NCBI GenBank assembly: GCA_025463905.1
Contig: JAODBJ010000325.1
Location: 1-56,724 of the forward strand
DNA length: 56,724 nt
Source of the DNA: Actinomycetes bacterium
Lineage (GTDB): Bacteria > Actinomycetota > Acidimicrobiia > IMCC26256 > PALSA-610
Direction: 5' to 3'
Shown: positions 645-56,446 of the stretch, in pieces
Layout: every line of letters starts with the position of its first letter
How positions within the stretch are numbered: the stretch's first letter is position 1
Program-made: the position numbers and the translations under genes
Notes under the pieces: model-generated
Database searches by the model: none
What the model was told of the DNA's origin: nothing
Seen by the model: only the letters and a program-made list of their open reading frames with translations

Positions 645-689
645 TATTTGCGATTGCAAGGGTACCCAAGATGATTGCGAACGCAAATA
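645..689. promoter_or_regulatory. Candidate MarR operator pair in the yceI/marR divergent region
   Basis: Inverted repeat: TATTTGCGATTGCAA (645-659) against TTGCGAACGCAAATA (675-689), 13 of 15 matching. It is centred on GGGTACCC. Each half contains a TTGC(G)..(C)GCAA mini-palindrome. The right half overlaps the marR ATG at 671. This is an AT-rich patch in a GC-rich genome. Confidence 0.45.
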
Positions 690-1240
690 TTCCGGCCTTT
701 GAGGGGCGGTACGATTCCGAAGTGGGCGAAACCGACGAAATTCCGTGGCTCGACGAGAGCGAGCAGCGCGTTTGGCGGTCGCTGATCGGCGCCACCGGCG
801 AGCTGATGGCGACTCTCGACGCCGAACTTCAGGCGGCGCACGGTCTCTCCGGGGCCGACTACGAGGTGCTCGTCAACCTTTCCGAGGCGCCCGATCGCCG
901 CATGCGGATGACCGACCTCGCGATCGCCCTGCACCTTTCTCCGAGCGGTCTCACCCGCCGGCTCGACGTGCTCGCCCGGCGGGGTTGGGTTCGGCGCGAA
1001 CGGTGCCCTTCAGACCGCCGCGGCACCTTCGCGGTGCTCACCGACGACGGATACGAGCAGATCGTGCAGGCCGCGCCCACGCATGTGCGCGGCGTGCGCG
1101 AGCACTTCATCAACCGCCTCACACCGCGCCAGCTCGCGAACCTCGGCGCGGCACTGAGCATCGTGGCCCCCGACGGCGGGCGCGGTGTCGCCGCGTGTGC
1201 CGAAGCGCACGAGGGTGCCAAGCCGAGTCGCCGCCGCTAA
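671..1240 (+). CDS. MarR-family transcriptional regulator
   Basis: C-terminal 189 aa of ORF 83..1240, starting at the ATG at 671. Winged-HTH pattern: GLSGADYEVLVNLSEAPDRRMRMTDLAIALHLSPSGLTRRLDVLARRGWVRRERCPSDRRGTFAVLTDDG. Divergent from yceI. Confidence 0.8.
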   Translation: MIANANIPAFEGRYDSEVGETDEIPWLDESEQRVWRSLIGATGELMATLDAELQAAHGLSGADYEVLVNLSEAPDRRMRMTDLAIALHLSPSGLTRRLDVLARRGWVRRERCPSDRRGTFAVLTDDGYEQIVQAAPTHVRGVREHFINRLTPRQLANLGAALSIVAPDGGRGVAACAEAHEGAKPSRRR

Positions 1241-5989: not shown

Positions 5990-6183
5990 CGGACGAGGGC
6001 CGGGCGGGCACCGCCCTCGCCCGCAGCGATGTTGTTTGATACCCACGACGGGTGCCGGATCCACCTACACATTTCGACCCATTTCGTGGAGCGGGTTCGT
6101 GCTTGGCAACGTCACGCGCGCACCACTCACTATGGTGCATAGACGCCGCGGGCGGTCGCGGCGCACGCAGGCGGAGGACCCCG

Positions 6184-6525: not shown

Positions 6526-8082
6526 TTACATCCGGGCTTGCAACGCGGTGTCGACGTCGTCGAGTTGGCGATCGAGCCATTTCTGCACGCTGTTGTGCCG
6601 CACGATCTCCACACCGGCTTGGCGGCGGATCCGGCGTTCCTCGAGGGGCATGGTGAGGGCTTCGTAGATGGCGTGCGCCTGTTGGTCGATGTCGAAGGGT
6701 GAGAGCGTCACTGCGACCGCCCCCAGTTCTTCGTAGGCACCCGTGTTCTCGGACAAGGCCAGCACGCCGTCGCGCGCATTCACGACGATGGCTTCCTTGG
6801 AGACCAGGTTCATGCCGTCGAAGACCGCGTTCACCATGAGCACATCGAACAGGCGGTACGCGGCGACAGCGAGTGGCAAGTTGTCGCCGAAGCGAAGGTC
6901 GACCGGCTGCCATTCGTCCGTTCCGAACCGTTCGTTTACGTGATCGACGGCGCGGTTGATGTCGTCGACGTACGCCACATACTGCGGCACGTCTTGGCGG
7001 CTCGGTTGTAGAAGCGCGAGGAACGTAACGCGCTCGTGTAGCTCCGGGTGGAGTTCGAGCATGCGTTCGTAGGCGCGGAAACCGCGCACGATGTTCTTCG
7101 ACGGGTCGGTTCGGTCGACGCGTAACACGAGGTGCTCACGTCGTTCACGAGCTAGCGCTTCTTCGTGCCGGGAGGCTTCGGGTGTGTCGGCCAGTTCGAG
7201 GAGTGTCGACGTGTCGACGGAGATCGGGTAGAAGCGGACGGCGACCTCGCGCTCGCCGTAGTGCACGACGCCGCGTTCGAAGTCGACGCTCAGGCCGAGC
7301 AGTTCCTGGCACGACAGCAGGAAGTTGCGGACGTACCGCTCGGTGTGGAACGCCACGATGTCGCTACCCAATAGCCCTTCCATGATCTGTTCGCGGAGCG
7401 CCGCAGGCAGGATGCGCCACGAGTCGGGCTGGGGCCACGGTATGTGCACGAAGAAGTGGAGAAATACGTCGAGTCCGGCGTCGCGTACGAGTTTTGGGAC
7501 CAGGTAGAAGTGATAGTCGTGCACCATCACGATGGAACCCGACGGCACCGCCGACGCCGTCTCGATCACCGCGTCGGCGAAGCGACGGTTCACCTCGACA
7601 TAGCCGTTGTTCCACGCGTCGATCTCGCGGCTGGTGATGTCGGGCGCGCACGCGTGGTCCCACAGGTAGTGCTGGATAAACCAGAGCAAGGGATTCGCGA
7701 TCACCGCATAGAAGTCGTGGTGCGCGTTCGGCTCGATGGAGAGCATCCGCACCGTGCAGGTGCGATCGGCGACGACGTCGTTGGATTCGAACGGTCCTTC
7801 GGCGGCAGCGGCGTGGTCTTCGTCGGTCGATGCGGCGCACACCCAGGTGGTTCGACCGCCGTGGCGCACGAGATCGCGTAACGCCGTGACCAAGCCGCCA
7901 CCTCCTCGGCGGGCGCGGCGCTCGCCTCCCTCGGATTCGAACTGCACCGGTCCTCGGTGCGAGACGAGTACCAGTTCCCGTTGAGGTCTTTGGGGCTCGT
8001 CGCCGCGATCGACCTCTATGCCGCCTATAGCGGGTTCGCCGTGTTCATCCGGAGTTGGTCGAACCAGCACGCTCCCAGCCAC
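6526..8082 (-). CDS. otsA: Alpha,alpha-trehalose-phosphate synthase (GT20)
   Basis: ORF 6526..8448 trimmed. Segments LVLVSHRGPVQFE, GGLVTALRDL, NPLLWFIQHYLWD, VHDYHFYLVPKLVR, FVHIPWPQPD and DGMNLVSKE are OtsA-like. Start proposed at the GTG at 8082 (alternative GTG at 8070), 8 nt after a GGGTAC -10-like element. No ATG is available in this region. Confidence 0.88.
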   Translation of the reverse strand: MAGSVLVRPTPDEHGEPAIGGIEVDRGDEPQRPQRELVLVSHRGPVQFESEGGERRARRGGGGLVTALRDLVRHGGRTTWVCAASTDEDHAAAAEGPFESNDVVADRTCTVRMLSIEPNAHHDFYAVIANPLLWFIQHYLWDHACAPDITSREIDAWNNGYVEVNRRFADAVIETASAVPSGSIVMVHDYHFYLVPKLVRDAGLDVFLHFFVHIPWPQPDSWRILPAALREQIMEGLLGSDIVAFHTERYVRNFLLSCQELLGLSVDFERGVVHYGEREVAVRFYPISVDTSTLLELADTPEASRHEEALARERREHLVLRVDRTDPSKNIVRGFRAYERMLELHPELHERVTFLALLQPSRQDVPQYVAYVDDINRAVDHVNERFGTDEWQPVDLRFGDNLPLAVAAYRLFDVLMVNAVFDGMNLVSKEAIVVNARDGVLALSENTGAYEELGAVAVTLSPFDIDQQAHAIYEALTMPLEERRIRRQAGVEIVRHNSVQKWLDRQLDDVDTALQARM

Positions 8083-8090
8083 ATCCGCGT

Positions 8091-8116
8091 GTACCCCGAG
8101 TCGAGCGCGGCGACAC
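8091..8116 (-). promoter_or_regulatory. SigF-type promoter candidate for otsA (one mismatch in -35)
   Basis: Minus strand reads GTGT-N16-GGGTAC, then 8 nt, then the GTG at 8082. Confidence 0.35.
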
Positions 8117-8143
8117 CCGGGCGCGGCGTTTGCGACACCCGGG
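8110..8143 (+). repeat. 12-bp direct repeat GCGACACCCGGG x2 in the otsA/nuoF-like divergent region
   Basis: Identical 12-mers at 8110-8121 and 8132-8143, 22 bp apart (about two helical turns). They overlap the -35 and spacer of both candidate promoters. Confidence 0.6.
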
Positions 8144-8152
8144 AACGGGTAG
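8128..8152 (+). promoter_or_regulatory. SigF-type promoter candidate for the NuoF-like gene
   Basis: GCGTTT (GTTT at 8128-8131), N15, GGGTAG (8147-8152), then 9 nt to the GTG at 8162. Confidence 0.5.
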
Positions 8153-8161
8153 GCGCGTTCG

Positions 8162-9592
8162 GTGAGTTCGGTCGGTTCGATGACGAAAGACGGATTGCTC
8201 GCGAATGTCGCAACGTTCGACGAGTACCGCGCCAGTGGAGGCGGCAATGGCGTCGTCGCCACGACCGCGCTCGGGAGCGAAGCGACGATCCGGGAAGTCG
8301 AACAGTCGGGACTCAGGGGCCGGGGCGGAGGTGGGTTTCCGACGGGGCGCAAGTGGCGCGCGGTGCGCGACGCAGGCGGCTCGCGTCGCTTCGTCGTGGT
8401 GAACGGCGCCGAGGGCGAACCGGGCACGTTCAAGGACCGCGCCATCATGCGCGCGAACCCCTACCAGGTGATCGAAGGCGTCGCGGTCGCCGCACTCGCC
8501 GTTGGCGCGTCGGACGTGTACTTCGCGATCAAAGCGTCGTTCACTCGCGAGATCGAGCGGGTAGCGCAAGCCGCGGCGGACATGGCAGCCGCGGGCCTGC
8601 TCGGCGACCTCAGCTTCACGATCGCTCGAGGCCCCGACGAGTACCTCTTCGGTGAAGAGAAGGCGATGCTGGAGGTGATCGAAGGCAACGATCCACTGCC
8701 GAGAGTTCTCCCTCCGTACCTCCACGGATTGTTCGCCACGATGCCGCAGCCCGGCTGGGACGCACACGCGAGCGTGAACGACATCGACACCGGCACCGGC
8801 ACCGGCACCGGCACTGACGGTTCCAATCCCACGTTGGTCAACAACGTGGAGACCCTCGCACACGTCGCGTCGATCCTGGACCGCGGTGCATCATGGTTCC
8901 GGTCGCGCGGCACGCCGCGCTCGCCCGGCACGATGGTGTTCACGGTGGTGGGTGACGTCGCCCGACCTTGCGTTGCCGAGTTGGAGATGGGGACGCCGTT
9001 GCGGGTCCTCGTGGAAGACGTCGGCGGCGGCACCGCATCGGGGCGGCCGGTGAAGATGGTGTGCTCCGGCGTGGCCAATGCCGTACTGCCCGGAGACCGG
9101 CTCGACGTTCCGATGCATTTCGACGCGCTGGCGAACGCCGGCGGCGGCCTCGGATCCGGAGGGTTCGTCGTGTACGGCGACGACGTCTGCGCGCTCGCGG
9201 TTGCGCACGCGTACTCCAACTTCCTTTGGGTGGAATCGTGCGGCCAATGCCCGGCGTGCAAACTCGGCAGCGGCGCGATTACCGCCGCGCTCGCAGACCT
9301 GGAAGCGCGCGGTGACGCCGACCAACTTGCGGTGTTGCAGCGCGCGCTCGCGACCGTCACGGACGGCAGCCGGTGTGGGCTACCGGCCGAGGAGCAGAAG
9401 GTGGTTGGCAGCTTGCTGCGTCGGTTCCCGGAAGACGTGGTGGCACACGAAGAAGGTGACGGGCGGCATTGCGCGCTGGGTCACGACGTCATCGTGCCGA
9501 AGGTCGTCGATCTGGAGGACGGCGCCGTCACGTACGACCTACGGCAGCAATACAAACGTCCCGACTGGACGTACGCAGAACCGGCCGCGTGA
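8162..9592 (+). CDS. Orphan NuoF-like (complex I 51-kDa-type) FMN/NADH and 4Fe-4S flavoprotein
   Basis: 476 aa. GLRGRGGGGFPTGRKW, FVVVNGAEGEPGTFKDRAIM and C-terminal ESCGQCPACKLGS are NuoF hallmarks. No nuoE or nuoG lies nearby. Start is the GTG at 8162 (leaderless model) or the ATG at 8180. Confidence 0.85.
   Translation: MSSVGSMTKDGLLANVATFDEYRASGGGNGVVATTALGSEATIREVEQSGLRGRGGGGFPTGRKWRAVRDAGGSRRFVVVNGAEGEPGTFKDRAIMRANPYQVIEGVAVAALAVGASDVYFAIKASFTREIERVAQAAADMAAAGLLGDLSFTIARGPDEYLFGEEKAMLEVIEGNDPLPRVLPPYLHGLFATMPQPGWDAHASVNDIDTGTGTGTGTDGSNPTLVNNVETLAHVASILDRGASWFRSRGTPRSPGTMVFTVVGDVARPCVAELEMGTPLRVLVEDVGGGTASGRPVKMVCSGVANAVLPGDRLDVPMHFDALANAGGGLGSGGFVVYGDDVCALAVAHAYSNFLWVESCGQCPACKLGSGAITAALADLEARGDADQLAVLQRALATVTDGSRCGLPAEEQKVVGSLLRRFPEDVVAHEEGDGRHCALGHDVIVPKVVDLEDGAVTYDLRQQYKRPDWTYAEPAA
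8788..8814 (+). repeat. In-frame hexanucleotide microsatellite (CACCGG)x4.5 inside the NuoF-like gene
   Basis: caccggcaccggcaccggcaccggcac encodes DTGTGTGTGTD. Confidence 0.9.
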
Positions 9593-9593
9593 C

Positions 9594-9917
9594 ATGGGGC
9601 AGGGCGCGGACACGATCATGAAAGTCCTCGACGAGTACGAGCAAGCGGGTTACCGCGGTCAGTTCCGCGTTCTCGAGGGGGCCCGGCTGCAATGCCTGAC
9701 CTGCCGCCACGAGGTCGACGCGAACACCGTGAGGCTCGAACGCCTGCATCGCCTCGAAGGGGCCTCGGACCCGGCCGACATGCTTGCCGTCGCCGGCCTT
9801 CGGTGCCCGAACTGCTCGACGCTCGGGACCGTCGTGCTCAATTACGGGCCCGAGTCGCCGCTGGAAGACGCCGACGTGTTGCTCGCACTCGACGACGAAC
9901 GCACCGGCCCCGAATAG
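9594..9917 (+). CDS. Small hypothetical protein with two Cys pairs (zinc-ribbon-like)
   Basis: C-terminal part of ORF 9078..9917. The ATG at 9594 sits 1 nt after the NuoF-like stop codon (alternative ATG at 9618). It contains QCLTC and RCPNC pairs and an acidic tail. I recognise no family. Confidence 0.6.
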   Translation: MGQGADTIMKVLDEYEQAGYRGQFRVLEGARLQCLTCRHEVDANTVRLERLHRLEGASDPADMLAVAGLRCPNCSTLGTVVLNYGPESPLEDADVLLALDDERTGPE

Positions 9918-9944: not shown

Positions 9945-10703
9945 TCAGGCGTCGAGGGTTTCGAGCCGGTCTCGCAAGATGCTGAGCGTGCGCGCCAGGA
10001 GGCGCGACACGTGCATCTGGCTGATCCCGACCTTCTGCGCGATTTCGGTCTGGGTCATCTCCTGGAAGAACCGCAGCCGGATGATCATCTGTTCGCGCTC
10101 AGGTAGTTCTTCGATAACGCGCTCGAGCAACACGCGGTGTTCCGCGAGGTCGAACCCGTGATCGTCTTCACCGAGCCGGCCCTCGAGCGTGAGCATCTCG
10201 CTGTTCTCGCTCGGGCGCGAGTCGATCGACGTCGAGCGGTACGCGCCGCCCACTTCCATCGCTTCGAGGACATCTTCTTCGGCGACGCCGAGTTCCTCGG
10301 CGAGTTCAGGGATACGCGGCGGTCGTTGCAACCGTTGCGAGAGTTCGTTGATCGTGTTGCCGAGACGCAGGTGCAGCTCTTGTGGGCGTCGCGGTACGCG
10401 CACGGACCAGGTGCGGTCGCGGAAATGTCGTTTGAGCTCACCTTCGACGGTCGCCGTCGCGAACGTCGAGAACTCGAGTTGGCGGTCGGGATCGAATCGC
10501 TCTACTGCTTTCAACATCCCGAGGTATGCGACCTGCAGCAGATCGTCGAACGGTTCGCCACGGTTCGCGAAGCGTCGCGCGAGGTGCATCGCCAACGACT
10601 TGTGCGCTTCGATCAGCTCATTGCGGAGATGCCGATCGTGCGAGTGGCGGAACTCGACGAATTTGCGGCGGAGTTTCTCGCGCTCCTGCGCGGAGAGCGC
10701 CAT
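9945..10703 (-). CDS. sigF: Group-3 alternative sigma factor, SigF/SigB type
   Basis: ORF 9945..11021 trimmed to the ATG at 10703 (MALSAQEREK...). ARRFANRGEPFDDLLQVAYLGMLKAVERFDP, HFRDRTWSVRVPRRPQELHLRL and MTQTEIAQKVGISQMHVSRLLARTL closely resemble mycobacterial SigF. Confidence 0.9.
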   Translation of the reverse strand: MALSAQEREKLRRKFVEFRHSHDRHLRNELIEAHKSLAMHLARRFANRGEPFDDLLQVAYLGMLKAVERFDPDRQLEFSTFATATVEGELKRHFRDRTWSVRVPRRPQELHLRLGNTINELSQRLQRPPRIPELAEELGVAEEDVLEAMEVGGAYRSTSIDSRPSENSEMLTLEGRLGEDDHGFDLAEHRVLLERVIEELPEREQMIIRLRFFQEMTQTEIAQKVGISQMHVSRLLARTLSILRDRLETLDA

Positions 10704-10704
10704 G

Positions 10705-11127
10705 TCAGTTCGACAGTCGCTTGAAGCAACGGAACCGGGCCGTGCCGGATTGTGCTTCGACCCCGTACTCGTCGACAACTGCCGCCAGGATTTGCTTGGT
10801 GAGATCGTCGATCGCGTATTCGCCGGGCGAGCCGGAGAAGGCGACGGTGCCTTCCATCGCGAGACCGTCTGATCTCGACGTGAATACGAGTTCGAGGTCG
10901 CCGCCGTTCGCGGCCTCGACCAGGATGCTCGACAACTCGTCGATCGCGACGCGTAGGTCTTCGATCTCCTCGACGTCGAAGCCGATCCGCGTCGCGACGC
11001 CCGACGCGGTGAGACGTGCAATACGCACGAACTCGAGTGCGGCTGGGATCGTCAAGCGCACCGTTTCCGGTTCCGCGACGCCCATCCCACTCGCGATCAC
11101 GCCGGTTCCGCCCGTCAGGTCCGCCAT
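10705..11127 (-). CDS. rsbW: Anti-sigma-F factor, RsbW/UsfX-like
   Basis: C-terminal 140 aa of ORF 10705..11745 from the ATG at 11127 (RBS GAGAGGA). EDLRVAIDELSSILVE parallels the DLRLAVDEVCTRLI segment of M. tuberculosis UsfX. The stop lies 1 nt before the sigF ATG. Confidence 0.78.
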   Translation of the reverse strand: MADLTGGTGVIASGMGVAEPETVRLTIPAALEFVRIARLTASGVATRIGFDVEEIEDLRVAIDELSSILVEAANGGDLELVFTSRSDGLAMEGTVAFSGSPGEYAIDDLTKQILAAVVDEYGVEAQSGTARFRCFKRLSN

Positions 11128-11208: not shown

Positions 11209-11234
11209 GTACCCCGTCGGCGGATTCGACAAAC
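11209..11234 (-). promoter_or_regulatory. SigF-type (autoregulatory) promoter of the rsbW-sigF operon
   Basis: Minus strand reads GCGTTT (GTTT = 11234..11231), N16, GGGTAC (11214..11209). A leader of about 81 nt runs to the ATG at 11127. Confidence 0.6.
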
Positions 11235-11237
11235 GCG

Positions 11238-11264
11238 GTTGGCCACCTACGTGGTTCGGGGTAC
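11238..11264 (+). promoter_or_regulatory. SigF-type promoter candidate for the 11285-13890 operon (one mismatch in -35)
   Basis: GTTG (11238-11241), N17, GGGTAC (11259-11264). RBS GAGGAAG and the ATG at 11285 follow. It sits back-to-back with the rsbW-sigF promoter. Confidence 0.4.
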
Positions 11265-11284: not shown

Positions 11285-11713
11285 ATGGGACTCGACGACG
11301 ACACCTTTCGAGATGAGTTCGAGCAGCGGCTGCCGGCAACGACCCGCAGCCTCGCCGAACTCCGGCACGCCGTCCGGGAGTGGGCTGCCCGCGCCACCGA
11401 CGACGAGGACCGAATGGCCGACATCGTGTTGGCCGCCTCGGAGATGGGGGCGGCCGCGATGCGCGTGGCGCCGCCAACGGCAACGGTGGTGCTGGCGGCG
11501 TGGGTCGACCGGGCCTGCGTGGTGATCGAGTCGCGAGTTGAGACCTCGCGAGATGCCCACGCCCCGCACGCCAACGACGACGATGGTGACGAGCGAGGGT
11601 TTTCGATTGTCGCTGCACTCTCCGACGTGATTGCGGTGCGCGACTCGTCGTCCGGCGTCGTCGTTCGAGCCCGGCTCCGGCGGCGCGGCTTCGACGTCGC
11701 CGTCGCCGGGTAG
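11285..11713 (+). CDS. RsbW/SpoIIAB-like anti-sigma regulatory factor paralog (degenerate HATPase fold)
   Basis: 142 aa. LAELRHAVREWAARA...DIVLAASEMGAAAMRVA and ERGFSIVAALSDVIAV follow the layout of anti-sigma kinases. The N-box Asn and the Gly-rich lid are not evident. Confidence 0.6.
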   Translation: MGLDDDTFRDEFEQRLPATTRSLAELRHAVREWAARATDDEDRMADIVLAASEMGAAAMRVAPPTATVVLAAWVDRACVVIESRVETSRDAHAPHANDDDGDERGFSIVAALSDVIAVRDSSSGVVVRARLRRRGFDVAVAG

Positions 11714-11731: not shown

Positions 11732-12865
11732 GTGGAGCGCGACAACGCTGTCGGAACATCGGTTGACTCGGTTGCGGAGGCGTTGCAGCGGAGTCTGCTC
11801 CCGGACGACGTTCACGACGGGCCGACGGTCGACCTGCGAACTAGGTATCGACCCGGCGGTAGCGCTCGAGTCGGCGGCGATTGGTACGACGTCGTGTTGC
11901 TGCAGAATGGCAGCCTCGGTCTGGTGATCGGCGACGTCGCCGGCCACGGAGTTCTCGCGGCCGCGGTGATGGGGCAGGTGCGCAACGCGTTGCGCGCGTT
12001 CGCGGGTGAGGGGTATCCGCCAAGCGCGATGGTCGAACGCTTGAATCACTTCGTGTTCGAGAACGGGCCGAGCGAGATGGCAACCCTGTGCTTTGCCGCG
12101 CTCGATCCCACGACCGGCGGGTTCGAAATGATTTCGGCCGGTCATCCGCCGCCGCTCCTCGTTCGCGCCGGTGGTGAGGTCGAATGGTGTGCCGGAACGA
12201 GCGGGCCACCTGTCGGCATCGATCCGCACAGCCGGTACCACCAGATCGATGCCGTGCTCGCGCCCGGCGACGTCGTTGTGCTCTACACCAACGGCCTCGT
12301 CGCGCGTCGGCACGAATCGCTCGACGTCGGGCTCGAACGTCTTCGCAATGCCGCCACGACGATCGCGCCGGAAACCGACCTCGACGGCATATGTGATCAC
12401 CTCCTGTCGACGCTGCTCGGAGACATCTCGACCGACGACGACGTCGCCGTTCTCGCGCTCCGCTATGCAGGGAATGTGCCCGGGACGTTGCGGTGGCGGC
12501 GCCCGGCGCGGGCCTCCGAACTCGGCCCGATGCGCCGCGTACTGTCGGCATGGCTCCAAGACGCGGGTGTGAACGCCGAGGATGTCACCGTGATCGCGGT
12601 CGCCGTGAGCGAGGCGGCGACGAATGCGATCGAGCACGCCTATACGAACCAAGAAGGTTGGGTCGACCTCGAAGCCGACGTTGACGACGAAGCGGTGACG
12701 CTCATGGTTCGAGACGGCGGGCGTTTTCGCCCGAAGGCGCCCGGCGGTGGGGGCCGTGGGCTCGGATTAATCGGACGATTGATGGACGAATTCGAGTTGC
12801 GGCGCAGCAATGAGGGAACGGAAGTATGGATGCGGCGAATGCGGAACGGGAGGACCGGAACGTGA
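11732..12865 (+). CDS. SpoIIE/PP2C phosphatase fused to an RsbW-type serine kinase (HATPase_c)
   Basis: 377 aa with a GTG start after GAGG. PP2C motifs: GGDWYDVV, GLVIGDVAGHGVLAAAVMGQVRNAL, ISAGHPPPLL, VLYTNGLVARR and DDVAVLALRY. Kinase N-box VSEAATNAIEHAY and G-box GGGGRGLGLIGRLMDEF. Confidence 0.9.
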   Translation: MERDNAVGTSVDSVAEALQRSLLPDDVHDGPTVDLRTRYRPGGSARVGGDWYDVVLLQNGSLGLVIGDVAGHGVLAAAVMGQVRNALRAFAGEGYPPSAMVERLNHFVFENGPSEMATLCFAALDPTTGGFEMISAGHPPPLLVRAGGEVEWCAGTSGPPVGIDPHSRYHQIDAVLAPGDVVVLYTNGLVARRHESLDVGLERLRNAATTIAPETDLDGICDHLLSTLLGDISTDDDVAVLALRYAGNVPGTLRWRRPARASELGPMRRVLSAWLQDAGVNAEDVTVIAVAVSEAATNAIEHAYTNQEGWVDLEADVDDEAVTLMVRDGGRFRPKAPGGGGRGLGLIGRLMDEFELRRSNEGTEVWMRRMRNGRTGT

Positions 12866-13221
12866 GCGATCTCGTGGAGGTCGTGGCCCGGCAGGACCGT
12901 TCGGTGCCCGTGTGTGAACTGCGAGGCGAACTCGACGCGTCCAACGTCGATCGCGTCCAGACGGCACTGCTCGACTGCGTGACGAAGGACGTGCCCGGTC
13001 TCGTGCTCGACCTGACCGACACGTCGTACCTCGACAGTGCAGGCGTGCGAATTCTCTTCGACTTGGCCCGCCGCTTACGGGCCCGCCGTCAGGAGTTGCG
13101 GCTCGTGGTCCCGCCCGACGGCGTGGTGCGTCGAGTGCTGGTGCTCACGGCACTGGCCGACGTCGTGCCCGTGGACGAAGAAACCGACGACGCAGTCCGC
13201 GCCTTGCGGGCGCGCCGATGA
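12862..13221 (+). CDS. STAS-domain anti-sigma-factor antagonist (STAS-2)
   Basis: The GTG at 12862 overlaps the upstream TGA (GTGA) and follows GGAGGA by 7 nt. ELRGELDASNVDRV...LVLDLTDTSYLDSAGVRILFDLARRL. A close paralog of STAS-5. Confidence 0.85.
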   Translation: MSDLVEVVARQDRSVPVCELRGELDASNVDRVQTALLDCVTKDVPGLVLDLTDTSYLDSAGVRILFDLARRLRARRQELRLVVPPDGVVRRVLVLTALADVVPVDEETDDAVRALRARR

Positions 13222-13230
13222 GGAGTTGAC

Positions 13231-13890
13231 GTGGAACGCGGAAGCACGCAGCACTCCGGGCGCATGGACGATGCGCTCGCCGAAGAGGTTGAGCCGCTGG
13301 TCCGCAGCGGGCATGAGACCCGTGCCAACGAAGACCGGGAGCACGAGCCGCCGGCGGACGACGAACCCTTGCCGGACGTGCGTATCGCCGGCGAGGACGT
13401 ACCGATGCCCGGGCTCCTCGACCTCGATGAGATCCAAGCGCGTTCGACGCTCGCGACATCGTTGCGGCCGAGTGTGTTCCCCGCGGACAGAGAGCACCTG
13501 CTCGAAGTGGCCAACGAGCAGTACGCCCCGCCCGACGTGCTGGAAGCGCTCGAGACCCTGCCGCCGCGCCGTCGCTTCGTAAACGTCCAGCAGGTGTGGG
13601 AGGCACTCGGCGGCGACCGAGAGCGACGCGACACCGCCGCGGCATCGGTGCCGACCGCCGCCGAACTGCCGGTCGAGGAACCGTTGGCTGCGGAACGGTC
13701 GGTGGCGGAACCGCGCGTGACGGAAGCGTCAGTGACGAGAACGTTGCCCAATCCGGTGGGCGAACACGAGGTCGGTGACGGCGAGGCGTGGTGGGTGCCA
13801 CCGCTGCGCACCGGCGTCGCGCTCGCGGCGTTGCCGCTGCGGATTGGGATCGGCGTGCTGCGCGCCGTTCGGAGTCGCTTGCCGCGTTGA
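13231..13890 (+). CDS. DUF2795-domain protein with a hydrophobic C-terminal tail
   Basis: GTG start 5 nt after GAGGAG. FPADREHLLEVANEQYAPPDVLEALETLPPRRRFVNVQQVWEAL matches the DUF2795 pattern. Acidic N-terminal half. C-terminus WWVPPLRTGVALAALPLRIGIGVL. Confidence 0.72.
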   Translation: MERGSTQHSGRMDDALAEEVEPLVRSGHETRANEDREHEPPADDEPLPDVRIAGEDVPMPGLLDLDEIQARSTLATSLRPSVFPADREHLLEVANEQYAPPDVLEALETLPPRRRFVNVQQVWEALGGDRERRDTAAASVPTAAELPVEEPLAAERSVAEPRVTEASVTRTLPNPVGEHEVGDGEAWWVPPLRTGVALAALPLRIGIGVLRAVRSRLPR

Positions 13891-13910: not shown

Positions 13911-14225
13911 TCAAGGCGCTGAGAGATCGCTGAGCACGCCGGCGATCTCGAGGACCTGCTGCACTGCGCCGGATGCTTCTGCAAGCATGAGGCGACCACC
14001 CGTGTCGCGCAGTCGCCGCGACGCGCCGATGATCGTGCGGATGCCGCTCGAATCCAGGAACTCGACATCGCCGAGCCGTAGCAGGATCAACCCGGCGCCG
14101 TCGTCGATGAGCTTGTCCAGCTTCGCTTGGAGTTGCGGTGCGGTTGCGAGGTCGAGCGTGCCGCGAGCCGTAACCGAATACGCGCCGGGCGACTCGTTCG
14201 ACGACGTCAGGTCGACGAAGGGCAT
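13911..14225 (-). CDS. STAS-domain anti-sigma-factor antagonist (STAS-3)
   Basis: From the ATG at 14225 within ORF 13911..14645. VTARGTLDLATAPQLQAKL...LRLGDVEFLDSSGIRTIIG. Confidence 0.85.
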   Translation of the reverse strand: MPFVDLTSSNESPGAYSVTARGTLDLATAPQLQAKLDKLIDDGAGLILLRLGDVEFLDSSGIRTIIGASRRLRDTGGRLMLAEASGAVQQVLEIAGVLSDLSAP

Positions 14226-14238: not shown

Positions 14239-14583
14239 TCACTCGGAACTGGCTGCCGGAACACCAAAGTGCTCGCGCAGGCCCGTGATCTCGAGCAGCC
14301 GCAGCACTGGCTCGCTTGCCTCGCGCAACTCGAGCCGGCCACCGCTACCTTCGAGCCGGCGGTGCACCGTGAGGAGCGCGCGCAAACCCGACGAGTCGAG
14401 GAACGCGGTCTGCGACAGGTCGAGCAGTAATTCCTTCGTTTGCTCGGCCAGCAGCGCCGCGATGTGGTCTTCGAGCGCGGGCGCGGTGTACGCGTCCAGC
14501 TCCCCCTGTACTGCGAGCACAACCTGGTCACCGTTGCGGTCCGTTGTGAGGACCAGCTCGGGCCCAACCACCTGTTCGTCCAC
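14239..14583 (-). CDS. STAS-domain anti-sigma-factor antagonist (STAS-4)
   Basis: 114 aa. GTG start with GGGAGGAC upstream. LAVQGELDAYTAPALEDHI...LLLDLSQTAFLDSSGLRALL. Confidence 0.85.
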   Translation of the reverse strand: MDEQVVGPELVLTTDRNGDQVVLAVQGELDAYTAPALEDHIAALLAEQTKELLLDLSQTAFLDSSGLRALLTVHRRLEGSGGRLELREASEPVLRLLEITGLREHFGVPAASSE

Positions 14584-14620: not shown

Positions 14621-14647
14621 ATACCCGGGTTCGGCCCGTCCGCAAAC
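14621..14647 (-). promoter_or_regulatory. SigF-type promoter of the STAS-4/STAS-3 pair
   Basis: Minus strand reads GCGTTT (GTTT = 14647..14644), N17, GGGTAT (14626..14621). A leader of about 30 nt carries a GGGAGGAC RBS before the GTG at 14583. Confidence 0.6.
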
Positions 14648-14675: not shown

Positions 14676-15245
14676 TCAACTCACGCGTTGACGAACTCGT
14701 TTCACCGCGCCCCGACCGGCATCGAGCGCACGATCGACGAACGCGAAGGCGGGGCCGGCCGCGAGGTTGAGCGGCGGTTCGTCGGGCGCGCCTGGATGCG
14801 GGTGCGTCGGCGCGGACTTCTTGGCCGCTTGCATCATCTCGCCGAGCTCACGCAACTCGTTCCGCGTGAGCGCCTGGCGCAGGGCCGGGAAGAGATCCTT
14901 CTCTTCTTCCTTCACATGGTGTCGCACCAACTCAGTGAGCACCGTCACCTTCGCGTCGAAACGCGGGTCCTCGGGCGACATGCGCTCGAGCATCGAGAGT
15001 TCGAGCTTCACGAGGAGATGTTCCTCGAGCGATTCCATCGCCATGTCGGCGAGCTTTTCGGCGCGCTCGCGCGCGACGGGGTACAGAAACTGCTCCTCGA
15101 TCGCGGCGTGGACCGACAACTCGCGCACGATCTTGTCGACCGTTGTCCGCTTCGATTTCGCGGCGCGCTCGCCGAGCGCTTCATATTTTTTGAACAGTTG
15201 CTCGACCGTGTGGTGGTCTTCGCGCAGCAGTGTGATTGCGTCCAT
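14676..15245 (-). CDS. Hemerythrin (HHE cation-binding) domain protein
   Basis: 189 aa. DAITLLREDHHTVEQLFKKYE, HAAIEEQFLYP, VRHHVKEEEKDLFPAL. Confidence 0.85.
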   Translation of the reverse strand: MDAITLLREDHHTVEQLFKKYEALGERAAKSKRTTVDKIVRELSVHAAIEEQFLYPVARERAEKLADMAMESLEEHLLVKLELSMLERMSPEDPRFDAKVTVLTELVRHHVKEEEKDLFPALRQALTRNELRELGEMMQAAKKSAPTHPHPGAPDEPPLNLAAGPAFAFVDRALDAGRGAVKRVRQRVS

Positions 15246-15254: not shown

Positions 15255-15280
15255 TTACCCGCGGTTGCTCGCGCCAAAAC
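15255..15280 (-). promoter_or_regulatory. SigF-type promoter immediately upstream of the hemerythrin gene, inside the 3' end of the Rieske gene
   Basis: Minus strand reads GTTT (15280..15277), N16, GGGTAA (15260..15255), then 9 nt to the ATG at 15245. No Shine-Dalgarno sequence is present, which fits a leaderless mRNA. Confidence 0.5.
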
Positions 15281-16196
15281 GGTCGCTTGTGAGCGGGGCC
15301 TCGTCCAGCACCACGTCGGGGCTCGCGCCGTCCTGCAGCGGCCCGCGCACTTCCACCATGTCGCCGCGGATGCGCGCGTCGTAGACGGGTTGCGGCGTGG
15401 TCGCGGGCCCGCGCACCACCGCACCGTCGCGCAGCGCGTATTCGCTTCCGTGCCATGGGCAGCGCAATGCGCCGCGGTCGACGGATCCTTCGTCGAGCGG
15501 ACCACCGGCGTGCGAGCACACTGCGGCAAGGGCGTGAACGATGGCGCCGCGCCGAACCAGCGCAATGCGCGCACCGTCAACGACGACGCCCTTGGGTTCG
15601 TTGTCGCGCAGTTCATTCGCGGCACACACCGCCTGCCACGTCGGGATGTCGACGACCGGTACTTCGACGTCGACGCCAACCCTTTGGTTGAAGACGAGAT
15701 GACCGCCCAGGTATCCGCCAACCGCAGTCGCGCCGAGTCCGATCATGCTCAGCGCGCTGCCGCGCAGGCGATGCCCTCTCCCGCGCGCCCGCCACGACGC
15801 CAATTGCAACGTGAGCGCGGTGACGTTCGCGGTTGCGTGCACCACACCGACGCGCTTGTCTTCGCCGAAGCTGTCGTGCCAGTCGGAGAGGCCGGCCGCG
15901 GCAGTTGGGAGTGACGCCAAGATCCCTACGCCCACGAGTCGCCGCGACGCGAGGCGCCCCGCGCGGCCACCGAGTACGTCGAGGACCGTTGCACTCGTCC
16001 AGGCGCCGATCGGTATGTCGGTGAGCATCGGGTGCAGCCGGTGACCGAGCCACGATCCTGAGAGCAGCCGCTTCACGTCGTCTCGGCGGGTCAACGTTTC
16101 CGACAACGAAGAGAGGGGGCGCGCGATCTGGTCGAGCCGTTCGTCCTTACCGGCTCGGTCCACGAGCGCGCGCACACGCCGGGTGATTTCATCCAT
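15255..16196 (-). CDS. DUF2231 membrane domain fused to a Rieske [2Fe-2S] domain
   Basis: 313 aa. N-terminal half LGHRLHPMLTDIPIGAW plus hydrophobic segments. C-terminal Rieske motifs CSHAGGPL and CPWHGSEY. Confidence 0.85.
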   Translation of the reverse strand: MDEITRRVRALVDRAGKDERLDQIARPLSSLSETLTRRDDVKRLLSGSWLGHRLHPMLTDIPIGAWTSATVLDVLGGRAGRLASRRLVGVGILASLPTAAAGLSDWHDSFGEDKRVGVVHATANVTALTLQLASWRARGRGHRLRGSALSMIGLGATAVGGYLGGHLVFNQRVGVDVEVPVVDIPTWQAVCAANELRDNEPKGVVVDGARIALVRRGAIVHALAAVCSHAGGPLDEGSVDRGALRCPWHGSEYALRDGAVVRGPATTPQPVYDARIRGDMVEVRGPLQDGASPDVVLDEAPLTSDRFGASNRG

Positions 16197-16262
16197 CGCG
16201 AACCTCCGATTGGTCTCGGGCCTCTTCCCGCGGGGTGCGTACCCAAACGGCCAGCCGGCTGA

Positions 16263-16610
16263 TCAGGCGAGGTCGCCGAGTGCGCTTTCGACGGTCGTGT
16301 GCAGGGGCACCTCGTCGTCGAGCTTGGTGAGCAAGATCACCCGCCGCACGAGTGCCTGATCGGTGACGACCAGGGCCAGCTGCTGACGCCGGGCCTGCAG
16401 GCGTTCCGCGAGGTCGAACAGCAGCCGGATGCCGCTGCTGTCGAGGTAGGTGGTCGCGGACAGGTCGAGGACCACCCGTGCGATGTTGCTCGCGACGCGT
16501 GCGGTCACCTCGTTGCGGATGTCGTCGACGTTCGAGAGATCGATTTCGCCTTTGACCCGAACGATCAGCGCTCGCGGCAGTTCTTCGAAATCGATGTGGG
16601 CGAGGTTCAC
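16263..16610 (-). CDS. STAS-domain anti-sigma-factor antagonist (STAS-5)
   Basis: 115 aa. The GTG at 16610 overlaps the upstream TGA (GTGA at 16607-16610). VKGEIDLSNVDDIRNEV...VVLDLSATTYLDSSGIRLLFDLAERL. Confidence 0.85.
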   Translation of the reverse strand: MNLAHIDFEELPRALIVRVKGEIDLSNVDDIRNEVTARVASNIARVVLDLSATTYLDSSGIRLLFDLAERLQARRQQLALVVTDQALVRRVILLTKLDDEVPLHTTVESALGDLA

Positions 16611-19303
16611 GCCGGCGGGCCTCCGCTCGCCAGCGCTCGGGTCATGCGCACGGTGGTCCCGTCATTCGTCGTCTCGATCGACACGTCGTCCATGAGGTCG
16701 CGGATCAAGATCAACCCTCGGCCGCCGCCCACACCGGGACGATCGGGTCGCCAGCGCCCAAAGTCTCGCACCCGCACGTCGACCACGCCAGCACCCGATC
16801 GGACACCGGACGCCGTCGCGGTCACCTCGATCCGCGCGTCGCCGGGACCATACGCGTGTTCTACGGCGTTGGCCGCAGCTTCGTTCACGGCCAGCACGAT
16901 GGCATCGCACTCGTCCACCGATGCGCCGGCGCGCGCGGCCCACTCGCCGATCCCGCGGCGGAGCCTCGCGAGTTCGCGTGGGAACGCGTCGAGGCGCATT
17001 GAGAACTCGGTGAGTTCGGCTTCGAATCGCACCACGAGGAGTGCGACGTCGTCGGTGGGCGGGCTACTCGCAGAGAGCTTCTCGATCACGTGATCTGCGA
17101 GTGCCTCGACTGTGTCGGGGCCGTCGCGCAGGGCGACTGCGAGCCGTTCGAATCCGTCGTCGAGGGGTTCGTGACGACGCTCGACGAGGCCGTCGGTGTA
17201 GAGAAGAAGTGTCGCTCCCGCCGTGATGAGCACTTCGGTTTCTTCGTATATGGCTCGCGGCGAGGCGCACACCGGCATGCCCCGCGCCGGGTCGAGATAA
17301 TGCACATGACCATCGGGTTCGCGTAGGAGTGGCGGGAGGTGTCCCGCACTGGCCAAACGTGCTCGGCGTGTCCGTGGTTCGTACACGAGCAGGCCGATGG
17401 TCGCCATGTCGGCGTCGGCGAACGAACAGAAATGGCGGTTGAGGTTGGTGAGGATGTCGGCCGGCGACGCGTTGTCGACGGCGTAGATCTCGAGCGCGTT
17501 GCGCAGACGCCCCATTGAAGACGCCGCCCGCACTCCGTGGCCCACGACGTCGCCGATCGCGAGGAACAGCCGGCCGTCGGTGAGCACGAGCGCGTCGTAC
17601 CAGTCGCCACCGATGCGCAACCCGGCCGCACCCGGGATATAGCGGCCGGTGATCGCGATGCCTGGGACTTCCGGCAGCGCGGCCGGCAACAATGTGCGTT
17701 GCAGCACCTCGATCATTTCCCGGTTGTCGGCGTAACGCTGCGCGTTCTCTACCGCCGGCGCGACACGTCGCGCGATCTCGAGCGCGACGGGAATGTCTTC
17801 GGGCTGGTAACGCCGCCCCGACGCGCTGTACCCGAATCCCAGTGCACCGATAGGCCCGTTCTCACCGAACATCGGCACCGCGAGGTACGACCGCAGCGGA
17901 TTGCCGTTCCCGGTGGCGCGCACATTGATGCCGGCGACCATTTCGTCGGCGGCTGGGCCCGGCAGTTCTTCCACGAGGACTGCGCGCCCGGTGCGTACCG
18001 CTTCGCACGGCGGCACGTCGGCGTCGAGTCCGTGCGACGGGAACGCGGCGCGCTCGAGCGCGGCCTGAACTTGCGGGTCCGAGTGCCCGGCGGCCACGAG
18101 GTTGAGGACGCCGTTCTCGACGAGGTACACGCCGGTCCCGTCGGCGAATTCCGGGAGCAACAGCCGAGCGACCCGGCGCAACCGTTGCGCGAGGTCGAGC
18201 TCGATCTTGAGCAATTCGCCGACGCGCGCGAGAAGCTGCAATCGCGCCGCGGCTCGCGCGGCATCGCCGGCGAGCCGCACGCTTTCGAGGACTTGCGCGA
18301 TACGGCGGCCGAGCTCGCGTGCGATCTCGATGTCGGCGTCGCGGTATTGCCGCTTGCTCGTCGACGTGTAGAGGAACGCGACCGCGCCGGCGACGCGACC
18401 GCCCACACCGAGCGGCACCGTGATCGACGATTTGCCGGCGAGCACTTCGAGGTACTCGAGATACTCCTCGTTTTGTGCCGCGGCGCGCCGGGCTTCTTCG
18501 TCGACGATCTCGAAGAATTGGACCTCGCCAGTGCGTATTGCGGTCGCGGCAGGCCCAAAAGGAGTCGGAGGCGGCAGTTGCGCCGACATCGCGCGCAGAT
18601 CCCGTTCCATGTCGGGATCGCAATGCGTGATCGTCGCGCGGCGGACCGAGCCGTTTGCCGTCGGCATGAACACGATGCACACATCGGCGAACGTGGGCAG
18701 CGCGAGCCGAGCCACCTGCTCGATCGCCTCGTCGAATGTGAGGTCGACCGCGAAGAGGTTGCTGGCGCGCGCTAAGAGCTCGATCTCCTGCTCGGCGCGT
18801 TTGCGTTCGGTGATATCCACCACGAGCGCCCCGAGCCCGATCGGCGCCTCGCCGGGTTTCCCCGCGTCTCGCTGCACCGGGAAAAGACTCGCGAGCCAAT
18901 GCTGCTCGACGCCGGGTTCCGAGCGGATCCGGCCCGATACCTCGAGATCGACGATCGGCTGGCCCGTCGTCTGCACCTGCTCGAACAGTGGCTCGACTCG
19001 AACCCAGATACTCGGCAACGCATCAGCGACCCGCCGGCCCGTCAGTTGATCGGCGCGGTATCCGAAGAGCGCGGCGAACGTGTCGTTGACGCGCGTGATC
19101 GTGCCGTCCGGCTCGAAGAACGCGAACGCGACGGGCGAGCGAGCGAGAAGCGTGTCGAGGCGCGCCGCCGTCGTACGCAGTTCCTCGCCCGCCCGTACCG
19201 CGCTCCGCCAGCGCGTGGAGCGGCGGCGCGCCGCCGTTCCAGCCACGGCCGCCGCCGCGCCACTGACGCCCACCAACCAACGACGAGCGAGACTTCGACG
19301 CAC
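16607..19303 (-). CDS. PAS-GAF-GAF sensor fused to a SpoIIE/PP2C phosphatase and an RsbW-type kinase
   Basis: 898 aa with a GTG start. PAS-like SPVAFAFFEPDGTITRVNDTFAALFGY. Two GAF-like blocks. PP2C motifs GGDWYDAL, LAIGDVVGHGVRAASSMGRLRNAL, SAGHLPPLL, LLLYTDGLVERR and DDVALLVVRF. Kinase N-box VNEAAANAVEHAY and G-box GGGRGLILIRDLMDD. Confidence 0.9.
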   Translation of the reverse strand: MRRSLARRWLVGVSGAAAAVAGTAARRRSTRWRSAVRAGEELRTTAARLDTLLARSPVAFAFFEPDGTITRVNDTFAALFGYRADQLTGRRVADALPSIWVRVEPLFEQVQTTGQPIVDLEVSGRIRSEPGVEQHWLASLFPVQRDAGKPGEAPIGLGALVVDITERKRAEQEIELLARASNLFAVDLTFDEAIEQVARLALPTFADVCIVFMPTANGSVRRATITHCDPDMERDLRAMSAQLPPPTPFGPAATAIRTGEVQFFEIVDEEARRAAAQNEEYLEYLEVLAGKSSITVPLGVGGRVAGAVAFLYTSTSKRQYRDADIEIARELGRRIAQVLESVRLAGDAARAAARLQLLARVGELLKIELDLAQRLRRVARLLLPEFADGTGVYLVENGVLNLVAAGHSDPQVQAALERAAFPSHGLDADVPPCEAVRTGRAVLVEELPGPAADEMVAGINVRATGNGNPLRSYLAVPMFGENGPIGALGFGYSASGRRYQPEDIPVALEIARRVAPAVENAQRYADNREMIEVLQRTLLPAALPEVPGIAITGRYIPGAAGLRIGGDWYDALVLTDGRLFLAIGDVVGHGVRAASSMGRLRNALEIYAVDNASPADILTNLNRHFCSFADADMATIGLLVYEPRTRRARLASAGHLPPLLREPDGHVHYLDPARGMPVCASPRAIYEETEVLITAGATLLLYTDGLVERRHEPLDDGFERLAVALRDGPDTVEALADHVIEKLSASSPPTDDVALLVVRFEAELTEFSMRLDAFPRELARLRRGIGEWAARAGASVDECDAIVLAVNEAAANAVEHAYGPGDARIEVTATASGVRSGAGVVDVRVRDFGRWRPDRPGVGGGRGLILIRDLMDDVSIETTNDGTTVRMTRALASGGPPA

Positions 19304-19605: not shown

Positions 19606-20241
19606 TCAGGCCATCGCAAGCAGCGAGGAACTCAAGGACGAACGGGCGTGATCGAAGCGCGCCGCGACGCGTTCCCAGTTGACGATGTTCCAGAACGCGT
19701 TGATCCACTCGTCCTTGCGGTTCTCGTACTGCAGGTAGTACGCGTGTTCCCACCCGTCGATCACGAGCAGTGGGAGGTTGGCCGGCGACATGTTCGCCTG
19801 GTGGTCGTAGATCTGCTGCACCATGACCTTCCCGGCCATCGGTTCCCACACGAGCGCGCCCCAGCCGGAACCGAACAAGGTTGTGGTGGCGAGGCCGAGC
19901 TGCTTCTTCAATGTGTCGACGGAACCGAACGCCTCGACGATTGCAGCCTTGAGTTCGCCGTCGGGTTCTCCACCGCCGTCGGGTCGCATGCTCGGCCAGA
20001 ACAGCGAGTGCAAGAGGTGGCCCGACACGTTGAACGCCAGCGCCCGCTCCAAACCGCGCAGCTGCTCCGAATCGCTCGCGCCTTGCTGTCGGAATACATC
20101 GAAGGAGGCCAGCGCGTCGTTCGCGCCCTTCACGTACGCCGCGTGATGCTTGTCGTGGTGAAGCTCAACTTGGCGCGCGGAGTAGTGCGGTTCGAGTGCG
20201 CCGTATTCGTAGGGCAGGTCAGGCAGTTCGTAGGTCGGCAT
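19606..20241 (-). CDS. sodA: Fe/Mn superoxide dismutase
   Basis: ORF 19606..20979 trimmed to the ATG at 20241 (RBS GGAGAA). MPTYELPDLPYEYGALEPHYSARQVELHHDKHHAAYV, GHLLHSLFW, DGWEHAYYLQYENRKDEW. Confidence 0.92.
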   Translation of the reverse strand: MPTYELPDLPYEYGALEPHYSARQVELHHDKHHAAYVKGANDALASFDVFRQQGASDSEQLRGLERALAFNVSGHLLHSLFWPSMRPDGGGEPDGELKAAIVEAFGSVDTLKKQLGLATTTLFGSGWGALVWEPMAGKVMVQQIYDHQANMSPANLPLLVIDGWEHAYYLQYENRKDEWINAFWNIVNWERVAARFDHARSSLSSSLLAMA

Positions 20242-20710
20242 CTGTTCTCCTCGGTTGGGCGCCGGTTCTCGAAAGACTGCGCAATCACGCGAACGCTCGG
20301 GTCTCGCGCAATCTTCCCCTCGGCAATCGACCGAGGAAGGAGCACCGGCCCAGGTGCTGAGAGTGAGAAACGTGCCGGCAGGGCGTGCGGGCCGGGCGGG
20401 CATCGCCCGCACGCCCCGGCCGGCCAAATGGTCCGAGCAGCCGGATGGGGGGTTCCTTGCCGATTCCGCCGGGACCTGCTGATTCGGGTTCCCGCTCGAT
20501 AGCGGGACCAAACCTGGCGGAGGAAAGTTTTCTTGAACGCAGTGTGATGCCCGGTTCGCGCCGCTCAAAAGCGCGATCGTGGTGGGTACAGCGTTGTTCG
20601 CGTGGCGGACGCCTCGGGTAACCACTGCGGCCGACCAGCAACGCACCAACGCTGGAGCGCTCCAACCAGTACGCATCCGATACCAGCCGTCCGAAACGAG
20701 GGCGAGGCCA

Positions 20711-34409: not shown

Positions 34410-34415
34410 GCGGGG

Positions 34416-36689: not shown

Positions 36690-36701
36690 ACGCCCGATAT
36701 A

Positions 36702-39500: not shown

Positions 39501-39526
39501 GTTTCGCTCCGCGCACGACGGGGGAC
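39501..39526 (+). promoter_or_regulatory. Weak SigF-type promoter candidate (one mismatch in -10) for the 39536 small gene
   Basis: GTTT (39501-39504), N16, GGGGAC (39521-39526), then 9 nt to the GTG at 39536. Confidence 0.3.
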
Positions 39527-56402: not shown

Positions 56403-56446
56403 CACCTCTCCCAATAGGGATCCGGCGCCCAAGAAGGTTCAGCGCG

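Follow-up and report, generated by a model that had tools for sequence, protein, structure and literature searches.

Predicted SigB/SigF-type promoters and stress regulon around a sigma-factor operon of an uncultured soil acidimicrobiial bacterium

In Mycobacterium smegmatis and Mycobacterium tuberculosis, the SigF–RsbW (UsfX)–RsfA/RsfB system uses promoters of the consensus GTTT-N15-17-GGGTA, and the sigma-factor gene is co-transcribed with an anti-sigma gene from a promoter of this same SigF type. Here we analyse the occurrences of this motif in a 56,724-nt stretch of DNA (contig JAODBJ010000325.1 of assembly GCA_025463905.1; hereafter the window) from an uncultured soil bacterium of the class Acidimicrobiia, where they surround the gene of a SigB/SigF/SigG-family sigma factor (9945..10703, minus strand). 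A preliminary description, made from the letters of this DNA without database searches, had read them as a local regulon of the mycobacterial SigF type, with a sigma operon autoregulated from a bidirectional promoter core. The comparative and structural-homology evidence supports the core of that reading, namely the promoter class, the local regulon, the autoregulation and the divergent pair. We consider it very likely that the motif is a promoter class read by this sigma factor, which would operate with a partner switch and a regulon.

Much of the mycobacterial circuit is documented. In M. smegmatis, autoregulation has been established, the SigF regulon includes trehalose genes, SigF-type promoters precede the genes of an RsbW paralogue and of anti-sigma antagonists, whose expression is lost when sigF is mutated, and many SigF promoters lie 8–11 nt from the start codon (PMC4694148, PMC7693655). 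The sites described here share with mycobacterial SigF the tolerated variants GTGT, GTTG, GCTT and GGGAA; GTTG variants of the −35 element and GGGAA variants of the −10 element precede genes whose expression falls in the sigF mutant of M. smegmatis (PMC4694148, PMC7693655). Sigma-B of Bacillus subtilis and Staphylococcus aureus uses the promoter GTTTWW-N14-GGGWAW, which equals GTTT-N16-GGGTA, and is encoded in an autoregulated rsbV-rsbW-sigB operon. Many relatives of the window have the comparable order STAS-rsbW-sigma, and a CsbD-like gene carries the motif in relatives, a further likeness to sigma-B. The SigB homologues of Streptomyces coelicolor (SigB, F, G, H, I, K, L, M and N) likewise belong to a G+C-rich actinobacterial setting, with similar promoters (GTTTGC-N14-GGGTAC and GGGTAG), an autoregulated sigH operon and many RsbW, RsbV and PP2C paralogues (PMC8346170).

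The locus differs in some respects from each of these systems. By contrast with mycobacterial SigF, the host class is Acidimicrobiia, the sigma factor stays under the cut-off of the NF005514 model, GGGTA is mostly followed by G or C instead of the Y of the mycobacterial consensus, the PP2C phosphatases form fusions with HATPase_c_2 kinases, and the promoter has rsbW directly behind it, while that of M. smegmatis lies upstream of chaB. Sigma-B belongs to Firmicutes hosts and is about 40% identical over the aligned region (by eye); the window has its STAS antagonists in a separate operon and no RsbRST stressosome. Streptomyces has nine paralogues, with cross-recognition and a developmental role, whereas here one SigB-like sigma factor is visible. 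The circuit type is well known; here it is found in uncultured soil Acidimicrobiia rather than in a mycobacterium. A full-text literature search on sigma and anti-sigma factors of Acidimicrobiia returned no study of sigma-factor regulation in this lineage.

The sigma operon and its predicted divergent promoter pair

The gene map of the window was drawn from codon usage and annotated with Pfam and NCBIfam. The 252-aa sigma factor contains regions 2, 3 and 4 (Pfam Sigma70_r2, r3, r4) without region 1.1, which is the group-3 architecture. Against TIGR02980, the model of the SigB/SigF/SigG subfamily, it scored 271.6 bits and passed the cut-off of 234.35; against the actinobacterial SigF model (NF005514 / PRK07122) it scored 262.8 bits and did not reach the cut-off of 372. 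Its nearest relatives among 185,579 species genomes come from metagenome-assembled genomes (MAGs) of uncultured Acidimicrobiia (87% identity at best, many at 72–81%), followed by sigma factors of Geodermatophilaceae (54%). The mycobacterial framing of the preliminary description holds for the promoter class, which is of the SigB/SigF type, but not for the uncultured soil host or for the protein, which failed the SigF model. With an acidimicrobiial host, 'SigF' is a name by analogy. Two other sigma genes of the window, at 50513–51508 (fused to a SnoaL-like domain) and 55929–56414, are of the extracytoplasmic function (ECF) type.

In the cryo-electron microscopy structure of the S. aureus sigma-B open complex, S235, Q236, M237 and R241 contact GTTT, the three G's are read by R97, R100 and R110, a pocket takes up the flipped A at −11, and the start lies 11 nt past the A of GGGTA (PMC11156646). 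By alignment, all seven base-contacting residues are kept in the window's sigma factor: S228, Q229, M230 and R234 correspond to the first four, within an identical SQMHVSR string, and R92, R95 and R105 to the three arginines. In the pocket for A−11, F86 is kept as F81 and F79 is replaced by R.

The stop codon of a putative RsbW/SpoIIAB-like anti-sigma gene (HATPase_c_2; Pfam, NCBIfam; 10705..11127, minus strand, ATG at 11127) lies 1 nt from the sigma start; the two genes are co-oriented and the arrangement is kept in relatives. Upstream of them is a perfect promoter motif, GTTTG-N15-GGGGTAC at 11210..11234 (minus strand), in which the A of GGGTA is 83 nt from the ATG and from which transcription is predicted to start near 11199. 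For comparison we used 48 Acidimicrobiia sequences (809 kb, 13.4% intergenic by our own gene calls; individual loci carry L numbers). The rsbW orthologues of L001–L005 and L023 have a perfect site of equal N16 spacing 73–125 nt upstream, and L019 has one in the same place. More widely, in 24 of 29 loci (within L001–L034) the (STAS-)rsbW-sigma operon has, ahead of its first gene, a site with no more than one mismatch; the boxes of this autoregulatory site are invariant, while its spacers have diverged between relatives. Of the 27 perfect sites in 33 loci of Geodermatophilaceae, 26 are on the strand of the sigma gene and about 1 kb upstream of it, so that autoregulation appears ancestral across classes. 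The autoregulated sigma operon of the preliminary description thus has a cognate site, conserved in relatives and in Geodermatophilaceae, through which feedback is predicted.

A separate observation concerns one subclade (L006, L009, L010, L012 and L014–L017), in which the STAS-rsbW-sigma promoter has the conserved −10 variant GTTT-N16-CGGTA (AACGCGGTA) in place of GGGTA.

Several points weigh against the assignment of the motif to this sigma factor and its anti-sigma partner. The link between sigma factor and motif rests on homology and gene neighbourhood. The rsbW-like protein stays under the cut-off of Pfam HATPase_c_2 (E=4.4e-5, 23.9 bits, cut-off 27.4) and far under that of the NCBIfam RsbW family (E=2.7e-13). 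One-mismatch sites, counted over the whole window, are near chance (14 observed, about 9.2 expected). The related loci are phylogenetically non-independent, and the site counts overstate the number of independent events. Lastly, some relatives have paralogous SigB-like sigma genes side by side, and such paralogues could read the same promoters.

This last point leads to an explanation that we judge improbable, in which the sites are read partly or wholly by another SigB-like paralogue encoded elsewhere in the genome and the apparent autoregulation is cross-regulation. Two SigB/F-like sigma genes do stand side by side in L024 and L031–L045, and in S. coelicolor nearly all tested promoters were recognised by at least two of the nine SigB homologues (PMC8346170). 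Yet the window has a single sigma gene of the SigB/F/G type, the other two being of the ECF type; the motif tracks the operon of this sigma factor across two classes of Actinomycetota; and none of the residues that contact the bases of the motif is missing from the protein. Recognition by the window's own sigma factor is the reading we retain.

On the opposite strand, a divergent promoter with one mismatch, GTTG-N17-GGGTAC at 11238..11263 (plus strand), precedes the operon that begins at 11285. The site is kept in relatives, and its role as the promoter of the 11285 operon is supported by this conservation. The two −35 elements, at 11231–11234 (minus strand) and 11238–11241 (plus strand), are 3 bp apart. 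In L002–L005 an opposite-strand GGTTG/GGTTC...GGGTA lies 23–24 bp from the −35 element of the rsbW promoter, and L019 and L023 have perfect divergent sites with 36–39 bp between −35 elements. The predicted bidirectional arrangement is conserved in these six relatives, with a −35 gap that ranges from 3 to 39 bp overall; the tight spacing is not. The near-symmetric core with a 2–3-bp gap proposed in the preliminary description therefore stands as a conserved pair, 3 bp apart here, but not as a conserved geometry. Because it is not conserved, the tight spacing is unlikely to be needed for function.

The same comparison bears on the idea that the pair at 11210–11263 is one unit, in which the short gap makes two holoenzymes compete or cooperate. 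The 3 bp between the −35 elements would suit it, as would a second back-to-back pair in the window, between otsA and a NuoF-like gene, with a gap of 11 bp; we nevertheless hold it unlikely, given that relatives keep both promoters at 23–39 bp. Two promoters set back to back are the arrangement assumed below.

Motif sites in the window and in related loci

Four perfect GTTT-N15-17-GGGTA motifs are present in the window, at 8128–8151 (plus strand) and at 11234..11210, 14647..14622 and 15280..15256 (minus strand). They are the four listed in the preliminary description, whose coordinates run 1 base past GGGTA. The chance expectation in dinucleotide-preserving shuffles is 0.24, in keeping with its rough estimate of less than one, and none of 100 shuffles gave four. 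All four sites fall inside 7.2 kb around the sigma gene, with none in the remaining 49 kb of the window, and the orientation of each is that of the next gene start. As had been proposed, each is aimed at an adjacent gene: the NuoF-like, rsbW-like, STAS and hemerythrin starts lie at +11, +83, +39 and +11 nt from the A, respectively. The GCGTTT extension that had also been pointed out is seen in three of the four sites, but it is not kept in relatives.

Confined to intergenic DNA with 30-nt margins (6,053 nt), the count of sites that have no more than one mismatch is 11, where 1.31 are expected; none of 300 shuffles gave as many. One-mismatch sites are enriched collectively and are individually not reliable. 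The five singled out in the preliminary description all exist as written. Those of otsA and the 11285 operon are kept in relatives and the one at the 39536 gene is only possible, but those of yceI and glgE are probably due to chance. A position weight matrix (PWM) built from the sites of the relatives and scanned over the window gave no sites beyond those in the mismatch lists, and a scan for sigma-70-like promoters between 7.9 and 16.4 kb of the window found none.

The Acidimicrobiia set contains 56 perfect sites, 52 of them outside genes and 42 in the orientation of a start codon no more than 200 nt away. Seven control motifs, permuted or reversed, gave 1–15 sites each, and shifted variants of the motif fell, in all but one case, mostly inside genes. 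The density was 6.9 sites per 100 kb in sigma-centred loci versus 0.28 per 100 kb in unrelated loci (351 kb of soil-metagenome DNA, 69% G+C). The preliminary description had said that equal frequency inside genes would count against the motif; on the DNA compared, the motif is not equally frequent there. In relatives, the spacer measures 16 nt in 29 of 39 sites, and GGGTA is followed by G or C in 34 of 39.

The sites recur before the same genes: the (STAS-)rsbW-sigma operon, a STAS antagonist, the PP2C-kinase operon, hemerythrin, the NuoF-like gene and otsA. At these orthologous genes the boxes are kept while the spacers diverge, which upholds the proposal of a local regulon of the SigB/SigF type. 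Neighbouring families taken as controls lacked the motif (CDF 0/16, hydrolase 0/16, TetR 0/4). Further motif-bearing genes in relatives encode LigD, CsbD-like, EncFtn-like and MEDS-HATPase proteins; by their predicted products, the motif-bearing genes together look like a general stress regulon. Across the 56 sites, the start codons of long open reading frames (ORFs) are most often placed 11 nt past the A of GGGTA, a peak that fits leaderless transcripts and would independently support the predicted transcription starts.

The gene of LigD, a phosphoesterase-ligase, is preceded by a perfect motif in eight relatives (L006, L010, L012 and L014–L018), at a distance of 133–155 nt in six of them; in L012, for example, the motif at 7510–7535 precedes the gene at 7682–9154. 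This suggests that repair by non-homologous end joining may belong to the regulon in relatives. The window's own LigD gene (40541–41989) comes after a second hemerythrin gene (42027–42452), and the PWM scan found no site for either.

That the sites are transcription-factor binding sites or chance occurrences in G+C-rich DNA, not promoters, is a very remote prospect: the near-chance number of one-mismatch sites in the window and the location of the yceI site within a palindrome resembling a MarR operator would favour it, but two blocks around a sequence-free spacer of 15–17 nt, strict orientation to the downstream gene, the preference for DNA outside genes (52 of 56) and the start codons at +11 are properties of promoters and not of operators, and chance is excluded by the window shuffles, the control motifs, the intergenic enrichment and the site density.

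Partner-switching and stress genes at the sites

The first gene of the 11285 operon (11285..11713, plus strand) encodes a HATPase_c_2 protein (Pfam E=5.4e-11), a putative second RsbW/RsbA-like kinase or anti-sigma paralogue that stays under the cut-off of the NCBIfam RsbA family (E=4.7e-13). Compared pairwise, it and the rsbW-like protein showed no significant similarity. This first gene is followed by that of a PP2C phosphatase (SpoIIE domain)–HATPase_c_2 fusion (11783..12865; Pfam SpoIIE 3.7e-49, HATPase_c_2 9.6e-27), then by a STAS anti-sigma antagonist with a DSAG phospho-serine motif (12826..13221; Pfam) and, as the last gene, by a DUF2795 protein (13231..13890; Pfam), all on the plus strand. 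A candidate internal promoter, GCTT-N16-GGGTAG at 11688..11712 (plus strand), 70 nt ahead of the PP2C-kinase gene, ranks fourth among the PWM hits of the window. The corresponding gene has perfect sites in L002–L005 (43 nt before the start), as well as in L019 and L023. The candidate, missing from the preliminary description, is likely to be a promoter of the PP2C-kinase gene.

On the minus strand, the perfect site GTTTG-N16-GGGTAT at 14622..14647 lies 39 nt before GTG 14583, the start of the first of two tandem STAS antagonist genes (14239–14583 and 13911–14225; Pfam, NCBIfam), both with the motif DSSG. L001 has GTTT-N16-CGGTA at the identical 39-nt distance, and a perfect site precedes the STAS orthologue in L007, L008, L019, L022, L023, L026 and L029. 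Further along the same strand are another STAS protein (16263..16610; Pfam) and a PAS-GAF-PP2C-HATPase_c_2 sensor (16607..19276; Pfam). The DS(S/A)G phospho-serine motif is present in all five STAS proteins, two of which meet the TIGR00377 model, and the window contains two SpoIIE–HATPase_c_2 fusions, one of them with PAS-GAF domains. By their predicted products, the window genes form a complete partner-switching system.

In more distant relatives (L036, L038, L041–L043, L045 and L078; 55–59% sigma identity), GGTTC/GGTTG-N16-GGGTA lies 11–13 nt before a STAS gene downstream of sigma, which is apparently a leaderless target there.

Stress genes predicted to give leaderless transcripts carry the motif as well. 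The perfect site of the hemerythrin-domain gene (14676..15245, minus strand; Pfam 1e-14) is GTTTT-N15-GGGTAA at 15256..15280 (minus strand), which overlaps the 3' end of the gene for a Rieske-DUF2231 protein (15255–16175, minus strand; Pfam). The hemerythrin ATG at 15245 is exactly 11 nt past the A of GGGTA, and its orthologues have a perfect site in three of three relatives (L003, L021 and L031). The protein resembles the PA2171 ribosome-binding persister family (NF053874, E=2.3e-30, under the cut-off).

The same geometry is found at the NuoF-like flavoprotein gene (8162–9592, plus strand; Pfam Complex1_51K, SLBB and NADH_4Fe-4S; NCBIfam NuoF under the cut-off), where GTTTG-N14-GGGTAG at 8128..8151 (plus strand) places GTG 8162 exactly at +11 from the A; before the L001 orthologue, too, a perfect site is followed by an ATG at +11. 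A 107-aa protein with no family assigned (9594–9917, plus strand) follows. Back to back with this promoter, with −35 elements 11 bp apart, is the one-mismatch site GTGT-N16-GGGTAC at 8092..8116 (minus strand), in front of otsA, the gene of trehalose-6-phosphate synthase (GT20; 6526..8082, minus strand; Pfam 5e-110). GTGT-N16-GGGTA is kept there in L001, L002 and L005, and the promoter at 8116..8092 is supported by this comparison. The start of otsA is likely to be GTG 8082, which is in frame and 10 nt past the A of GGGTA, with an N-terminal extension in frame with that of L001. In L001 itself (12170–13848), otsA is apparently split by a frameshift, through an error of the MAG assembly or as a pseudogene; the N-terminal part and the GTGT-N16-GGGTAC promoter remain.

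Another site absent from the preliminary description, GTTTG-N15-GGGAAC (GTTT-N16-GGGAAC) at 20489..20513 (minus strand), lies 248 nt upstream of sodA (19606–20241, minus strand; Pfam/NCBIfam). In the alignment with L001, GGTTT and GGGAAC are kept and the spacer has diverged; the site is likely to be a promoter. Between it and the sodA start, the leader contains a G+C-rich hairpin of about 50 nt (GCCGGCCGGGGCGTGCGGGC...GCCCGCACGCCCTGCCGGC; 20374–20424, minus strand), 84% conserved with L001 3610–3690 and with two compensatory pair changes; it had no Rfam match, nor did an Rfam scan of the whole window give any. The hairpin may act as a leader structure in the RNA or as a palindromic operator, or be an element of the repetitive extragenic palindromic type. 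A 20-nt partial copy of the hairpin (95% identical) at 5997–6016, between the genes of a CDF transporter and a STAS protein, hints at a dispersed repeat.

A large trehalose and alpha-glucan cluster (20711–38942) adjoins the stress sigma cluster. It contains glgE, the gene of an alpha-amylase-family protein of 1150 aa where the treS-mak fusion would stand, malQ, glgB and a glgX-like isoamylase, with two further amylase-family genes (possibly treZ and treY) and a sulfatase gene inside.

The remaining sites are weak or were rejected. GTTTC-N15-GGGGAC at 39501..39525 (plus strand) is a possible promoter, with the right geometry for a leaderless gene: GTG 39536, the start of a 65-aa acidic ORF, is exactly +11 from the A. 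A GGGGAC −10 element is documented for promoters of the S. coelicolor SigB homologues (PMC8346170). A metagenome scan for this site with DUF72 found only distant relatives (at most 62% identity), without the small acidic ORF. In five of 71 such distant DUF72 loci (L083, L112, L128, L130 and L135), a one-mismatch motif, for example ATTTGA...GGGGTAG, lies 10–14 nt before the DUF72 start, and DUF72 may be a leaderless target of the SigB/F type in other soil bacteria.

The yceI site (688..663, minus strand) was rejected: it recurs in none of eight relatives, loses the G that R234 (the equivalent of S. aureus R241) would contact, and is probably a chance match inside a palindrome that a divergent MarR-like gene adjoins. 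The site is intergenic, given that yceI starts at ATG 613, not at 934 as in the codon-usage gene call, and the MarR-like gene near 671. The palindrome (645–690; TATTTGCGTTCGCAAT ... CTTGCAATCGCAAATA), between yceI and the easily overlooked MarR-like gene (671–1240, plus strand), is probably a MarR operator. The glgE site (20596–20620, plus strand) was found in none of five relatives, lies in a stretch absent from L001 and is likewise probably due to chance. A site at the Rieske gene (GTTT-N15-GGGAA, 16248..16225) is intergenic and co-oriented, yet it recurs in none of five relatives, and one at 36619 is aimed at no gene.

A proposed circuit and its meaning

We propose the following circuit. 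Region 4 of the sigma factor would read GTTT at −35, regions 2 and 3 would read GGG(T)A at −15 to −11, and transcription would begin about 11 nt past the A of GGGTA. The co-transcribed RsbW-like anti-sigma kinase would keep the sigma factor inactive until unphosphorylated STAS antagonists free it, these antagonists being under the control of the PP2C-kinase fusions, one of which has PAS-GAF sensor domains. Once freed, the sigma factor would transcribe its own rsbW-sigma operon, in positive autoregulation, together with its regulators, that is, the tandem STAS genes and the divergent operon (HATPase, PP2C-kinase fusion, STAS and DUF2795). It would also transcribe a set of stress outputs, several of them leaderless: hemerythrin, the NuoF-like flavoprotein, otsA for trehalose and probably sodA.

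A stronger form of this proposal appears improbable to us. It would make this the first inferable general-stress sigma regulon of uncultured soil Acidimicrobiia, with mostly leaderless outputs (hemerythrin, NuoF-like and OtsA), a LigD member in relatives and compact promoter pairs (3 and 11 bp) which could couple the sigma/anti-sigma operon to a decoy kinase/phosphatase operon through competition or cooperation of holoenzymes.

The understanding of how such systems work is unchanged by this locus. For Acidimicrobiia, which are abundant in soil and have few cultured members, it provides a concrete model of the promoters of the stress sigma factor and a proposed core regulon. SigB/SigF autoregulation and the GTTT/GGGTA recognition code would extend across classes of Actinomycetota, and in Acidimicrobiia MAGs the motif may serve for the annotation of stress regulons and for correcting the start codons of leaderless genes.

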